This document shows, one piece after another, positions 10,150-15,401 of a DNA stretch of 64,000 bases. The stretch comes from an uncultured Mycoplasmatota bacterium (GTDB lineage Bacteria > Bacillota_I > Bacilli_A > RF39 > UBA660). Location: positions 7,347 to 71,346 of the forward strand of contig CANAXT010000001.1 of assembly GCA_947365915.1 (NCBI GenBank). Reading direction: 5' to 3'. Position 1 is the stretch's first letter. Each line of letters begins with the position of its first letter. The position numbers and the translations under genes were made by a program. Under the pieces are notes generated by a model. The model did not search any database. It worked only from the letters and a program-made list of their open reading frames with translations, and was not told where the DNA came from.

Positions 10150-10300
10150 TGATCGTCTTTTTACGACACTTTTCCCCTTATTTTGGACAAATTTAAACAA
10201 AAAAATCTTAATTCAATAAGAATTTTTTTATTTCAAACTAGTGCATGAGTAAACCACATTTAGGAATTCGTATTAAAGTTAATTTCTAAACTAATCATAA
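10150..10300. repeat. direct repeat copy 1 (about 80-150 bp): partial copy of the tRNA-Arg 3' flank plus the islet end sequence
   Basis: TTTGGACAAATTTAAACAAAAAAATCTTAATTCAATAAGAATTTTTTTATTTCAAACTAGTGCATGAGTAAACCAC... aligns to 12456-12600 and to 15214-15285. Confidence 0.8.
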
Positions 10301-10400
10301 CATTTGCAATCTTTATAATCAATAAAATTACAACAAAATAATAGTAGAATCGATAGAAATATTCTTCGGAAAATAATTGTAAAAATTTATTGATTATCAT
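10260..10400 (-). CDS. candidate small hydrophobic peptide (46 aa)
   Basis: MIINKFLQLFSEEYFYRFYYYFVVILLIIKIANVMISLEINFNTNS. A strong RBS AAAGGAG lies 7 nt upstream. The 3' end reads into repeat copy 1. It is not in the ORF track. Confidence 0.3.
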   Translation of the reverse strand: MIINKFLQLFSEEYFYRFYYYFVVILLIIKIANVMISLEINFNTNS

Positions 10401-10453
10401 TCTAGATCTCCTTTAAAAATTTTTATTTTATTTGGAAACATTAATAAAAATGA

Positions 10454-10882
10454 TCAAGTTATCGATTTAAAAGTATCTTTCGTTTTTCTAAAGTCTAAAA
10501 CTAAAAAACCATCATATTTTATTTTAATTAATTCATCATTCAATTCAAAAAAAGTTTCAACTTTATTATCTTTTAATTCTTTTATTTTAAGCATTATATT
10601 GCTTTCAATTTCTGTATCTAAAAATTTTTCTGTATCAAATACTTCAAAAAATACATCGTTTTCAAAAGGAATCTCATTATAATTCTTATTCAAAAAACAA
10701 TTTATATTATTATCTTTTTCAAATCCTGCATCTAAATTTATATAACCCTTTTCTTTATTATCAATATTAATAAATGTTAATTGAATATTGATATTATAGC
10801 CTTTAGTTCCATTTTTTGCATATGTTCCAACAAATATTTTTTGTTCAAGAACCTCAATATTTTTATTATCTATATACAACAT
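10454..10882 (-). CDS. hypothetical protein (islet A cargo)
   Basis: A 142-aa ORF that is extremely AT-rich. Confidence 0.4.
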   Translation of the reverse strand: MLYIDNKNIEVLEQKIFVGTYAKNGTKGYNINIQLTFINIDNKEKGYINLDAGFEKDNNINCFLNKNYNEIPFENDVFFEVFDTEKFLDTEIESNIMLKIKELKDNKVETFFELNDELIKIKYDGFLVLDFRKTKDTFKSIT

Positions 10883-11094
10883 AGATACTCCCCTCCTTTT
10901 ATATATTTCTATTACTTAGATACCATATCATTTATTATTAATCTTATTTAATAAAACTGGTGTTAGTATAGATATATAGACACAAAAAGCAAGCTAGCAG
11001 GTGTTATAGTACGTGAATATAGCATAAGTAATGCAGTTCTTTACAGATGGGTAAAAGAATATTTTTTTACTCATTTTTATCGCCTACTTAAAAT

Positions 11095-12183
11095 TTATCT
11101 ATCTATATATTTAACAAAGAAATCATCATCTTCAGAATAATGCATATCAATATCAATATTATTCATTTGAACAAATCCTTTATTTTTGTAAAATGTGTGT
11201 GCATTTTTCAATATTTGTCCACAAGCTAAATAAATCTTGTTTATTTTAGTATTAGATTTAATATACTCAATTAGATTCTCATATAATCTTGTTCCAACAC
11301 CAATATTTTGATACTTTTCATCAACATAAAAACGTTTTAATATACCATAATTATCATTTCTATTTTCTAGTGCTATAGTTCCTATAATTTGTTTCTTTTT
11401 TATATCAATGGCTAACCAAAAGTTTCCATTATTTTTTATATAATAATCATTTATTTTAGATATATCAGGTCTTACTTTGTATTTTCTACCTATAAATTTA
11501 TACATGCTTTCATTTATAAAATAACAAACTTCATCACTATATTTATCATCATAAGTGATAATTTTGACAAGCGCATTTTTATTAATATAGTCATAAATCT
11601 GTTGCCAATTATCAAAATTTTTGATTTTATTATTTAACTTCTTACTATTTCCAATGGTGAATGCTAAAATTCCTGAACTTGATACATTAGAGCAATTGCA
11701 TATGCTATCATCTATTAGTAAATCAATATCATTTTCCAAGCATACTCTTTTTTTATTTCTGGCATTAACTATTAATTTATCATAATATATATCATTTTTC
11801 TTTAACCAAACTTCACTTTGCATATAAGGATTATCGTGAAATTCACTATCTCTAGCAGTAATTATATATATTTCATTGCCTTCATCACGCAACTTTTTTA
11901 TTACTTCTACACAATGATTTCTAGGGGTAGCATTATTTGTTATTTTCTCCTGTATTGTACCTAAAAAATACTTCAATTCATTATAAGTGAAATGAAACAG
12001 TTTTTGATATACATTTCCATCATTGTATGCATCATTAATATTTAAATCTTCATTTTCTACATATTTGTTTAACGTTTTAGCATATTCAACTGCTGCATTC
12101 ATTAATTTGTCATTTATATCAGTTAAAGTGTTATCTATATCAATTCCTATTCTCAATTTAATCACTTCCCAATGCATAATCAT
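11095..12183 (-). CDS. fusion of a HAD-family 5'(3')-deoxyribonucleotidase-like domain and a GNAT acetyltransferase (islet A cargo)
   Basis: The N-terminal RIGIDIDNTLTD is the DxDxT HAD motif, and IYIITAR follows. The C-terminal RFYVDEKYQNIGVGTRLYENL is GNAT motif A. A more likely start is the TTG at 12156 (MRIGIDID...), which has RBS GGGAAGTGA. Confidence 0.6.
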   Translation of the reverse strand: MIMHWEVIKLRIGIDIDNTLTDINDKLMNAAVEYAKTLNKYVENEDLNINDAYNDGNVYQKLFHFTYNELKYFLGTIQEKITNNATPRNHCVEVIKKLRDEGNEIYIITARDSEFHDNPYMQSEVWLKKNDIYYDKLIVNARNKKRVCLENDIDLLIDDSICNCSNVSSSGILAFTIGNSKKLNNKIKNFDNWQQIYDYINKNALVKIITYDDKYSDEVCYFINESMYKFIGRKYKVRPDISKINDYYIKNNGNFWLAIDIKKKQIIGTIALENRNDNYGILKRFYVDEKYQNIGVGTRLYENLIEYIKSNTKINKIYLACGQILKNAHTFYKNKGFVQMNNIDIDMHYSEDDDFFVKYIDR

Positions 12184-12224
12184 TTATATCAATTATACCA
12201 AGAATCTCTAATAATCGATATAAA

Positions 12225-13691: not shown

Positions 13692-13713
13692 AAATTTCTA
13701 CCTTCTCTCATAA

Positions 13714-14595
13714 TTAATGAAATATTTTATTTAACAATCTATTAATTAATTCTTCTGATTCCATCTCATTAATGGCAAAACATTTTTTGCCTAAATCTTT
13801 AAATGATGAGCCACAGGAATATAATTTTTTTCTATCTATAATTATGAATCTATCATGAAATATATCAGTGTTTTTAAATTCTATATTAGAATACTGATTT
13901 TTGTATTTTTTCACCAAAATGTCATCAATATTTTTGGAAATAATGACTATTTTCTTATTTACATTTTTTAAAATCTTCAATAACTCTTTTCCAGCATAAT
14001 TATCAATAATAATTATTTCTTCTTTTGCAGTGTCAAATATATTTAATAAAAGCACATAAGCGTCAAATATTTGACCTTCAAAGAATATCGTATTAATTTT
14101 TTCTTTTTCTTGCATTTTATTAAATGTATTTTCTAGCTTTAATATTCTATTTTCGTGATTTAATAGCATTTCACTATTTACTAAACTGTTAGAAACATAC
14201 CTTCTTAATTTTACAAATGCATCAATGATTTGTACATTTACTTTAACTGCTATATCACTTTTAAGTAATCCAGATAACATCATTATTCCTTGTTCTGTTA
14301 AAACATAAGGTAAATATCTTACACCACCATGATTATTTTCACTTGAGATCGCAAATTGCGACCTCAAGTTATAAAATTCAGTCTCTGTTAATTGAAAGCA
14401 AAAAGTATCAGGAAATCTTTTAATATTTCTTTTAATAACCTCATTAATTCTTCTTGTTTCTACTTGATAAAGTTTAGCAACATCTGATGATAACATTACT
14501 TGAACCCCTCTTATTTCATATATCATTTTTTCTACATTATTATTAACATTAACAATATTATTATTTTCTTTTTCTTTAACTGTAATATTTGACAT
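13714..14595 (-). CDS. ORF6N/KilA-N-like DNA-binding domain protein (mobile-element associated)
   Basis: MIYEIRGVQVMLSSDVAKLYQVETRRINEVIKRNIKRFPDTFCFQLT...GGVRYLPYVLTEQGIMMLSGLLKSDIAV is an ORF6N domain. The C-terminal half is ORF6C-like. Confidence 0.65.
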   Translation of the reverse strand: MSNITVKEKENNNIVNVNNNVEKMIYEIRGVQVMLSSDVAKLYQVETRRINEVIKRNIKRFPDTFCFQLTETEFYNLRSQFAISSENNHGGVRYLPYVLTEQGIMMLSGLLKSDIAVKVNVQIIDAFVKLRRYVSNSLVNSEMLLNHENRILKLENTFNKMQEKEKINTIFFEGQIFDAYVLLLNIFDTAKEEIIIIDNYAGKELLKILKNVNKKIVIISKNIDDILVKKYKNQYSNIEFKNTDIFHDRFIIIDRKKLYSCGSSFKDLGKKCFAINEMESEELINRLLNKIFH

Positions 14596-15004
14596 TTAAA
14601 ACCTCCTTTCAAGCAATTTGTTTTAAGAAGCACCTAAAAAATATTTAATTTAGAGCAAAATTTCAAAATAAATCTTAAAGTATTTAGGCTCACACCTAAC
14701 TGTTTCTGTTTCTTAGGTACCTTGTTCATTCACTTTTCTATTCTTGATTCACCATCATACAAATTTTTTTATTTGTTCATATTCTTTCTTTTTATCTTCT
14801 AAGTAATAATTGTAAAGTAATCGGTTGCAATCAAATATTTTATGAATCAACTCTTTCCATTCTATGTTTAGAATAAATTCTAAATTTATGGGCTTTATGA
14901 ATTATCATTTTCATCACCTTTGTATAATCGATTATATCAAGAACAAATATTCACATCAATGCTTTTTTACAAATTTTTGTATGACTTTTCTATTCTATAA
15001 AAAT

Positions 15005-15285
15005 AACTAGTGTTCATTTATCATATAAAACAATTTAGATTGTAAAACGAGAGCGATTTTCTCAAAATCAATCATTTATTTTTTGAGATAGGATAGTTTT
15101 TTCGCGACATTTTCGCGACACTTTTAGTTAAAAAAACTATCCTAATATACAAAACCATAAGCATTGAAAATCATTTATGTTTGAAAAGAAATATATAGAC
15201 AACCGTCTTTTACCCTTTATTTTGGGCGAATTTAAGCAAAAAAAAATTCTTAATTTAATAAGAATTTTTTTATTTCAAACTGGTG
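15005..15285. repeat. direct repeat copy 3, the native 3' flank of tRNA-Arg
   Basis: It is homologous to copy 2 over about 280 bp. It contains the palindrome AGGATAGTTTTTT-CGCGACATTTTCGCGACA-CTTTTAGTTAAAAAAACTATCCT. Confidence 0.8.
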
Positions 15286-15357
15286 TCCCAGGAGAGATTC
15301 GAACCCCCGACCCACGCCTTAGAAGGGCGTTGCTCTATCCAGCTGAGCTACTGAGAC
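15281..15357 (-). tRNA. tRNA-Arg (anticodon TCT), CCA encoded
   Basis: The cloverleaf parses as acceptor GTCTCAG/CTGGGAC, D-arm GCTC-AGCTGGATA-GAGC, anticodon stem ACGCC/GGCGT with loop CTTCTAA, and T-arm GGGGG-TTCGAAT-CTCTC, followed by ACCA. Confidence 0.9.
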
Positions 15358-15401
15358 GATTTGTTCAAATGAACAAATAAATTATACATCAAATATTTTA
15401 A

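Follow-up and report, generated by a model that had tools for sequence, protein, structure and literature searches.

Arrays of degenerate mobile elements behind tRNA genes have been described by a scheme in which integrative and mobilizable elements (IMEs) give rise to cis-mobilizable elements (CIMEs) and build up by accretion, and IMEs with serine recombinases carry very short flanking repeats (PMC5704250). In the streptococcal arrays, such as ICESt1/ICESt3 and the tRNA-Lys islands of S. agalactiae, integration and transfer genes have been lost and attachment (att)-like ends kept, and the units are stacked in tandem at the 3' end of a tRNA gene, a newcomer using an att site that includes the end of the gene (PMC5704250). 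Large serine recombinases (LSRs) are seldom reported at such sites; 14 of 297 have been placed at tRNA genes, for which experimental proof was called for, and the association is otherwise essentially unreported (PMC7192596). Here we describe an array in a 64,000-nucleotide stretch (hereafter the window) of contig CANAXT010000001.1 from an uncultured Mycoplasmatota bacterium. It lies at the 3' end of tRNA-Arg(UCU) and consists of unit B, next to the tRNA, and unit A beyond it, each opening on its left, tRNA-proximal side with a flank repeat (F) and closing on its right with a short end sequence (E).

The window feature is in itself an ordinary object, decayed recombinase-less islets in a tRNA accretion array, and it resembles the streptococcal arrays in each of the respects given above. 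Those arrays differ in their tyrosine integrases and in repeats that hold a sizeable piece of the tRNA 3' end, whereas here 5 nt are repeated and the associated recombinase is an LSR. What is less ordinary is a family of LSR elements that targets the terminal CACCA of several tRNA genes and of the transfer-messenger RNA (tmRNA) gene, for which the ssrA islands of Dehalococcoides are a partial and the closest precedent. Those islands likewise have a serine recombinase (the CcrB-like DsiB) and form tandem arrays at the tmRNA 3' end, and 15 of them have no integration module and were read as cis-mobilizable (PMC3146451); one relative of the window units, L053 (related loci are given L numbers), also stands behind tmRNA. 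The Dehalococcoides islands differ in having a 20-bp repeat, insertion in the T-loop region of ssrA, two recombinases (DsiA and DsiB), ssrA as the sole target and a host in another phylum, whereas the family described here has a terminal CACCA core, several tRNA targets and a single LSR preceded by a 90-aa gene. Similarly, LSRs place the cassettes of SCCmec, pseudo-SCC and the Enterococcus cassette chromosome at the 3' end of one conserved gene (PMC6222049; PMC3146451). Composite SCC arrays contain recombinase-less cassettes between short repeated integration-site sequences, but their target, rlmH (orfX), is protein-coding, their recombinases are CcrAB or CcrC and their cassettes are much larger.

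The array can be read directly from alignment of the window with itself. Blastn recovered three copies of F and two 62-nt copies of E, in agreement with the three direct repeats and shared end of about 60 bp described in the original prediction, and with its layout of tRNA, flank, cargo B, end, flank, cargo A, end, flank (Table 1). No further copy of F or E was found by blastn in the 64-kb window. When F3 with its core (14998-15285) was searched against the whole window, it matched F2 with its core (12250-12525) with 85.4% identity over 288 nt (E 1.5e-93), a value lower than the 90% estimated before. The repeat was also thought to stop at the tRNA 3' end, but it includes the final 5 nt of the tRNA, as CACCA or as CACTA. 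F1, taken to the end of its core, consists of two blocks, 10128-10173 and 10170-10243, of 84-87% identity with about 90 bp deleted between them, and is fused to the region upstream of a VanY gene; it represents either the flank that the tRNA had originally or the stub left by a third unit. E2 (12526-12583) pairs with E1 (10244-10301), and E together with the adjoining flank gives 87.3% identity over 134 nt (E 1.8e-42). Weaker in-register similarity between F3 and F2 runs to about 14921 and 12173, respectively, and F is then about 365 nt long (repeat family D16); the extension of F3 holds a promoter-like TTGATG-17-TATAAT in a promoter scan, and that of F2 overlaps the start of a HAD-GNAT gene. 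The cargo had been described as AT-extreme; GC content is 20-25% in the array and about 30% in its surroundings.

The first 55 nt or so of every F form a 13-bp A/U hairpin that leads into a U tract (z about -4), which is the tRNA terminator. This AU-rich hairpin was detected by folding and missed by a simple terminator scan. In F3 it lies at 15240-15271 and is accompanied by an inverted repeat around GTCGCGA repeats and by a 22-codon open reading frame (ORF). The strongly conserved part of F stops at ...AAATGAACACTAG (window 15012, minus strand), with ATACTAG at the corresponding place in F2 (about 12264), a CAC(T)A-like pentamer that may be there by chance.

Each E is a member of a family that occurs well beyond the window. 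We aligned 14 E copies from different contexts, gap-free over 62 nt plus the core, all ending at (G/A)CACCA, and the window copies are 83-91% identical to those of the relatives. A relaxed core pattern for E recovered 8 copies in metagenome contigs; a stricter pattern recovered none. The same E followed by CACCA terminates L053, L032 and L023. Two other identities for E were ruled out: it is not a folded attC-like or RNA element, as it folds no better than shuffled sequence (z -0.4), and it is not a decayed tRNA 3' half, as the alignment is poor, the T-loop motif is absent and 5 nt follow the last hairpin-like stretch. The tRNA was the sole Rfam match, with nothing in F or E. Separately, E opens with an extended -10 box (TGnTATAAT) that is conserved and is preceded, 17 nt upstream, by a -35-like hexamer (window 12576-12604 and 10294-10322, minus strand), and this promoter-like box points at the CACCA junction and the terminator of the next unit. 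Judged by its position, it could produce a junction-spanning transcript or could serve as the promoter of the recombinase module once an element has been circularized.

The cargo next to each E also has homologs elsewhere, and these are different for the two units. For unit B, the module ORF6N'-HExxH-GNAT-E is present in L015, which was found with L016 and L017 through homologs of an HExxH protein, and there leads into CATCA and another flank; L015 positions 1-1281 correspond to window 13880-12600 at 94% identity and 1577-1673 to window 12605-12515. By this comparison E is the conserved sequence just 3' of the GNAT gene. Over 141 nt, the right flank of L015 shows 75% identity with the DNA that follows tRNA-Arg(UCU) in L003, and since it differs from that in the window, the unit B module exists elsewhere with another right-hand neighbor. 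For unit A, the homologs are L023 and L053, and a single element of the L023/L053 type combines parts of both window units. These linkages bear on whether a flank-cargo-E segment was duplicated in situ by unequal crossing-over, with later replacement of the cargo in one copy. Such a duplication would explain two private substitutions common to E1 and E2, as well as the membership of all three F copies in one family known only in the window. We consider it very improbable, because E2 is joined to GNAT as in L015 while E1 is joined to the 144/125-aa gene region as in L023 and L053, E1 is nearer to the E of L023 (91%) than to E2 (84%), and the two cargos have no other similarity.

The relatives of the window units encode a recombinase. 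In the full-length elements (L053, L032, L018 and L023), which have CACCA at either boundary, the order is left end, 90-aa gene, LSR, in some cases a MobV relaxase, cargo and E. L053 begins with tmRNA..CCACCA and a CitG-like unit to ..CACCA, followed by the 90-aa gene, a 591-aa LSR that is intact and matches a PHROG integrase at 9e-124, ORF6N, genes of 137, 138, 144 and 69 aa, E and CACCA. L032 comprises the 91-aa gene, a 600-aa LSR, Mob_Pre, genes of 164 and 307 aa, a GltX paralogue and E; L018 comprises the 91-aa gene, a 641-aa LSR and Mob_Pre and terminates in HExxH-GNAT'; L031 reads ORF6N...Ymh-E. The 91-aa gene starts about 100 nt inside the left ends, and wherever the contig continues (L018, L032, L041 and L053) the next gene is the LSR. 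L023 has the gene order of L053 as far as the 144-aa gene, with further small genes ahead of E and CACCA, but its LSR is split by a GNAT insertion. This interruption, in which a 155-aa GNAT gene in the opposite orientation separates the Resolvase and Recombinase parts, was observed at L023 5093-7577 and L026 2386-4870. We also observed that in L053 (1437-1800) the tmRNA gene end ...CTCCACCA is followed by the CitG-like unit ending ...GGTC CACCA and then by the LSR element, an arrangement that extends the array logic to ssrA.

By contrast with these relatives, which have their own LSR with Resolvase and Recombinase domains, no integrase was found by Pfam in the window units, and tblastn with the LSR, Mob_Pre relaxase and 91-aa queries of the relatives gave no match anywhere in the 64 kb. 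The earlier description of the islets as integrase-less is thus upheld. The units lack integration and transfer genes by Pfam and tblastn, share att-type junctions with recombinase-bearing relatives (E with CACCA or CACTA on the right and the tRNA CACCA on the left), and are homologous in both cargo and E to L053 and L023, elements that use the same kind of site. These comparisons support the interpretation that the window units are CIME-like remnants of serine-recombinase elements, the LSR being assigned by association.

If insertion was site-specific, the catalyst might still have been something other than the LSR, such as a tyrosine integrase or host factor encoded elsewhere, with the LSRs as passengers or serving another att site. 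In keeping with this, no contig joins an LSR to tRNA-Arg(UCU), some islets, for example one of 483 bp described below, have neither E nor LSR, and tRNA 3' ends are classic targets of tyrosine integrases, the use of tRNA and tmRNA genes by serine integrases being rare (PMC7192596; PMC5704250). We regard this alternative as unlikely. No Phage_integrase domain was present in about 25 Pfam-annotated loci that carry these units, and L018, L032, L041 and L053 each have an LSR just inside their left end. The strict 5-nt identity fits the short repeats of serine elements (PMC5704250) and the very short identity between the attP and attB sites of LSR elements, the position of the crossover being our placement; it does not fit the displaced tRNA fragment of at least 15 nt that defines Islander-type islands made by tyrosine integrases (PMC4383910). 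Those islands are alike in the kind of target gene, the preservation of the tRNA and their tandem arrays; here, 5 nt are repeated and there is no tyrosine integrase. Integron arrays are comparable in being made of small, mostly promoter-dependent, recombinase-less cassettes that each carry a conserved recombination site, but no IntI is present here, E is not a folded attC-like site and the array starts at a tRNA rather than at attI.

The junctions obey a common rule. In a table of 37 junctions the core is CACCA, with CATCA, AACCA and CACTA as single variants. On the left of the core is either a tRNA or tmRNA 3' end (Arg-UCU, Thr-GGU, Leu-CAA or tmRNA) or the right end of a unit, of which there are three families plus others; on the right is the left end of a unit, opening with a hairpin. 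Left-end type C occurs behind Arg-UCU in L006 and Thr-GGU in L033-L037, and type B occurs behind Arg-UCU in L003-L005 and Leu-CAA in L018. As the same types stand behind different tRNAs, the left ends travel with the elements. One species, in which the ORF6N protein P0261 is identical across contigs, provides three allelic states. In L033 the tRNA-Thr-GCACCA adjoins an ORF6N unit; L036 has in addition a 483-bp islet between two GCACCA; and in L032 an LSR element ending in E takes the place of the tRNA side. From GCACCA on, L032 matches L036 at 99.6% identity, whereas the sequences before it are unrelated, and this breakpoint indicates that new units enter at the tRNA-proximal junction.

The 483-bp islet, which has no Rfam match, is one example of a recombinase-less module of about 300-480 bp that we observed where tRNA-Thr, tRNA-Arg or an E end is followed by a CACCA junction (Table 1). 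It contains a box that resembles a promoter, a conserved segment of higher GC content and a small hydrophobic ORF (MIAIRRRTFIIKVLFF...), and by this composition it looks like a type I toxin-antitoxin system.

The uniformity of the core also bears on two explanations that involve no site-specific integrase. Imported DNA or circles with an F-like segment could have entered by RecA-dependent single crossover in the flank homology of about 290 nt, and the F repeats, at 283-365 nt, are indeed far longer than usual att cores and were not found outside the window. This would, however, not account for the end point of the homology, which is the same CACCA in every copy, for the recurrence of this core around unrelated units at four different tRNA or tmRNA genes or for the conserved E immediately beside each core, and 85% identity makes a poor RecA substrate; we therefore judge it quite improbable. 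A single-strand transposition of the IS200/IS605 type, with insertion 3' of a fixed tetra- or pentanucleotide, would account for insertion always 3' of CACCA and for hairpins near both ends, and an N-terminal TnpB remnant is present at 14758-14908. Yet no Y1 (HUH) TnpA was found in any locus, the TnpB stub is confined to unit B of the window and absent from related units, E has no stable hairpin and CACCA is present at both ends, unlike the ends of IS608-type elements. This explanation is hardly credible. Site-specific integration accounts better than any of the alternatives for the combination of an invariant CACCA, a conserved E and independent linkages of E to cargo.

We next compared the orthologous locus in nine related contigs from metagenome-assembled genomes (MAGs), with GerM identities of 46-94%, from uncultured Bacilli, 'Tenericutes' and Erysipelotrichaceae, largely of gut samples. 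GerM is followed by tRNA-Arg(UCU) in 9/9 and all diverge from the window exactly after CACCA. An F-like terminator, termed type A, stands behind the tRNA in L002, L007 and L058; in L058 it leads to core genes within about 1 kb (def, murD, eno and ftsK), while in L007 and L060-L062 it is followed by a fragment of a type IV secretion system (T4SS) coupling protein. In L001, the closest relative (94%), the tRNA is separated by a 1.1-kb islet from a second '...GG CACCA + type A terminator'. L004 and L006 carry the 91-aa gene about 100 nt after the CACCA of the orthologous tRNA. The empty site anticipated in the original prediction, with VanY directly behind the tRNA, was seen in 0/9 related genomes, and the pattern that was to speak against integration, a conserved array of bare terminators without cargo, was likewise seen in none of the nine.

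The F repeat had been taken as the flank of the tRNA. This holds for the terminator part, as only some 50-65 nt of F could be shown to be a native-type tRNA flank; the remaining 230-300 nt or so were found nowhere else. Beyond the terminator, F may be the left end of the units themselves, or it may be native flank captured on re-mobilization from the array, as accretion allows. We had considered type B as a native tRNA flank and dropped this, as the same left ends stand behind different tRNAs and ahead of the 91-aa gene, and yet in L005 and L058 short type B or type A-like flanks pass straight into core genes. The type B flank was not found elsewhere in the window. A scan of viral contigs for the E/F junction gave chance 17-mer matches only (GC 0.39-0.60, without blast similarity), scans of viral contigs for the F motif and E core gave nothing relevant, and in phage and plasmid collections the whole region had only two blastn matches, both distant and to ORF6N.

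Two further observations concern these loci. Two to three direct repeats of TTTTAGTACCCA (AGTTCCCA in L007) lie behind the terminator at L001 12340-12400, L002 11225-11265, L007 about 11230-11270 and L041 about 5900, and in L007 and L060-L062 the T4SS coupling-protein fragment comes after these repeats; they may belong to another element family using the same tRNA, as its arm-type or iteron sites. In addition, SpoIIIAH-GerE-GerM-tRNA-Arg and the islet are inverted in L001 (9033-12740 versus window 15275-17342) relative to the window and L002-L007, with a truncated GNAT and a RhuM-like fragment at the breakpoints. The inversion could be real or could be a MAG assembly artefact.

Collectively, our data suggest, with a probability that we put at about three in four, that the region is an accretion array of at least two, and probably three, degenerate recombinase-less units from a family of small integrative elements that insert at CACCA, directly after the encoded CCA end of tRNA and tmRNA genes. 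The successive site-specific integrations of related elements originally proposed are supported by the E family, L015, L023/L053 and the GCACCA allelic series. A unit would extend from a left end with a terminator hairpin, here F, to the 62-nt E abutting the next CACCA. We infer that an LSR would join the attP of the circular form (E-CACCA-left end) to attB (tRNA 3' end-CACCA-flank) through conservative strand exchange inside CACCA, so that the tRNA would be kept intact and the terminator of the unit would substitute for the native one. With newcomers entering on the tRNA-proximal side, F1 and its CACTA core would be the oldest part of the array, followed by unit A and then by unit B as the most recent arrival. 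The module of the 90-aa gene and LSR would then have been lost from the window units and further deletions would have followed. The units are probably immobile at present; residual movement would at most involve a related recombinase acting in trans, or deletion by recombination between F copies.

Several observations weigh against this interpretation. The link to the LSR is one of association, and where the 91-aa gene follows tRNA-Arg(UCU) the contig stops short of any LSR. There is no evidence of excision. Exact-protein look-ups with GerM (two start codons) and the HAD-GNAT protein returned no conspecific genome, hence no empty or partly filled site for this locus. F beyond its first 50-65 nt matches no other sequence searched, and so F need not have travelled with the units. 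Two substitutions are common to E1 and E2 and occur in no other E copy, which hints at a common donor or at gene conversion in the array. Finally, the type A flank of the window lacks a motif found at many of the other junctions. An exact TCGAAC occurs 15-17 nt right of the CACCA center in 12/31 distinct right halves (L003-L006, L015, L018, L032, L033, L041, L045, L048 and L053), compared with 0.1% in controls, and mirrors the T-loop GTTCGA at equal distance on the tRNA or tmRNA side. This motif raises the tentative, and to us doubtful, possibility that the E-terminated elements have an LSR lineage with an unusual target, a pseudo-palindromic attB made of the T-loop and acceptor end of tRNA and tmRNA genes, which are universally conserved (GTTCGA, -17 to -22), and a mirrored TCGAAC (+15 to +17) supplied by each unit, and that arrays, including sub-kilobase recombinase-less islets, grow in this way from the CCA end of several tRNA genes. 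Since each unit would bring its own mirrored TCGAAC, attB would be regenerated after every insertion.

For this genome, the outcome is modest: the 5 kb of AT-rich DNA that follow tRNA-Arg are accounted for as what is left of two or three mobile units, and one of these has a candidate anti-phage gene, the ORF6N gene of PADLOC family PDC-S05. Beyond it, LSR-bearing units bounded by the terminal CACCA of tRNA-Arg, tRNA-Thr, tRNA-Leu and tmRNA occur on several contigs, together with a clean insertion series within one species. If the LSR is the catalyst, uncultured gut Bacilli would have a compact serine integrase system that targets several tRNA genes and assembles cassette-like arrays. Such a system would bear on the shuffling of defence and accessory genes in these bacteria and would add to the catalogue of integrases with conserved, near-universal targets.

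Table 1. Features of the array behind tRNA-Arg(UCU), in window coordinates, with sites of the short islet module in related loci.
Feature	Position	Strand	Evidence
tRNA-Arg(UCU) (tct), CCA encoded	15281-15357	minus	ARAGORN; Rfam tRNA, 63 bits
Core 1, CACCA	15281-15285	minus	final 5 nt of the tRNA-Arg gene, C72-A73-CCA (tggtg on the plus strand)
F3, left end of unit B	14998-15280	minus	blastn, 85.4% to F2; fold -12.6 kcal/mol, z -4.1
TnpB (IS605/IS607-type) N-terminal stub, frameshifted	14758-14908	minus	HTH_OrfB_IS605, E 5.8e-10, 38.9 bits (cutoff 21), conceptual peptide
ORF6N-domain gene, 293 aa	13714-14595	minus	Pfam ORF6N, 3e-32
HExxH protein, 301 aa	12786-13691	minus	motif only, no Pfam match
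GNAT pseudogene	12588-12799	minus	comparison with intact 173-aa GNAT of L015
E2, 62-nt right end of unit B	12526-12587	minus	gap-free alignment with 13 other E copies
Core 2, CACCA	12521-12525	minus	sequence; junction table
F2, left end of unit A	12250-12520	minus	blastn; fold z -4.2
HAD-like/GNAT fusion gene, 362 aa	11095-12183	minus	Pfam Acetyltransf_1, 8e-15; HAD_2, 9e-4, below cutoff; PHROGs
Internal CACCA	10958-10962 (CACCAG 10957-10962; ACACCAG 10957-10963)	minus	alignment; blast breakpoints at 10958
142-aa gene	10454-10882	minus	tblastn, 94% aa, 92% nt to 138-aa gene of L023/L053
N-terminal remnant of L023/L053 144-aa gene	10306-10400	minus	protein N-termini agree
E1, right end of unit A	10244-10305	minus	91% to L023 E; 84% to E2
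Core 3, degenerate CACTA	10239-10243	minus	sequence; junction table
F1, partial F copy (terminator and distal block)	10128-10238	minus	blastn; alignment; fold z -3.6
VanY-type D,D-carboxypeptidase, first gene past the array	8935-10065	minus	Pfam VanY, 4e-44
Islet module	L036 9180-9662		
Islet module	L032 9180-9662		
Islet module	L045 ~4450-4760	minus	
Islet module	L053 ~8230-8560		
Islet module	L001 ~11150-11440		
Islet module	L008, after tRNA		

The division into two islets stands, with the qualification that unit A (10244-12520) may itself be composite. Its homology to L023/L053 starts exactly at an internal CACCA, which a repeat search had independently paired with the tRNA end (D8). At the frequency of CACCA on this strand, about one per kb, a coincidence within 2 nt has a post hoc probability of about 0.005. 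Unit A may therefore be two units, A1 with F2 and the HAD-GNAT gene, and A2 with the 142-aa gene and E1. About 730 bp have been deleted from unit A (L023 9897 to 10627), comprising the remainder of the 144-aa gene and the next gene, and a 46-aa ORF (10260-10400) begins with the remnant of the 144-aa gene and continues into E1. Past the array, VanY is syntenic with L001, and its likely start is the MKKKQK codon, as in the L001 homolog.

The cargo as listed before was confirmed for ORF6N, for the HExxH motif and for the GNAT part of the HAD-GNAT fusion, the HAD part remaining below threshold. The gene thought to be truncated is a GNAT gene that was not cut by the junction; it lacks 296 bp internally, at about 12600, relative to L015, whose GNAT was confirmed by Pfam. 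This deletion gives rise to a 94-aa ORF (12515-12799) that reads through E2. The TnpB stub is a further sign of decay in unit B (12526-15280): it lies between F3 and the ORF6N gene, the remainder of the gene is deleted and there is no TnpA nearby. The ORF6N protein matches the PADLOC candidate defence family over its full length (E 1.8e-92), and its gene, the first of the cargo in unit B, is 91-93% identical in nucleotides to those of L023, L031 and L053; dozens of contigs contain homologs of 85-94% identity, which usually come directly after the recombinase or the left end. A model of the HExxH protein made with AF2 (pLDDT 94) gave weak matches to collagenase and LTA4H (TM about 0.4) and so weakly resembles a gluzincin-like metallopeptidase fold. 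The HExxH gene, with 278 homologs, and the 173-aa GNAT gene form a conserved overlapping pair (L015 1082-1603), which was seen in L015-L022 and which in L018 lies at the right end of the LSR/Mob_Pre element.

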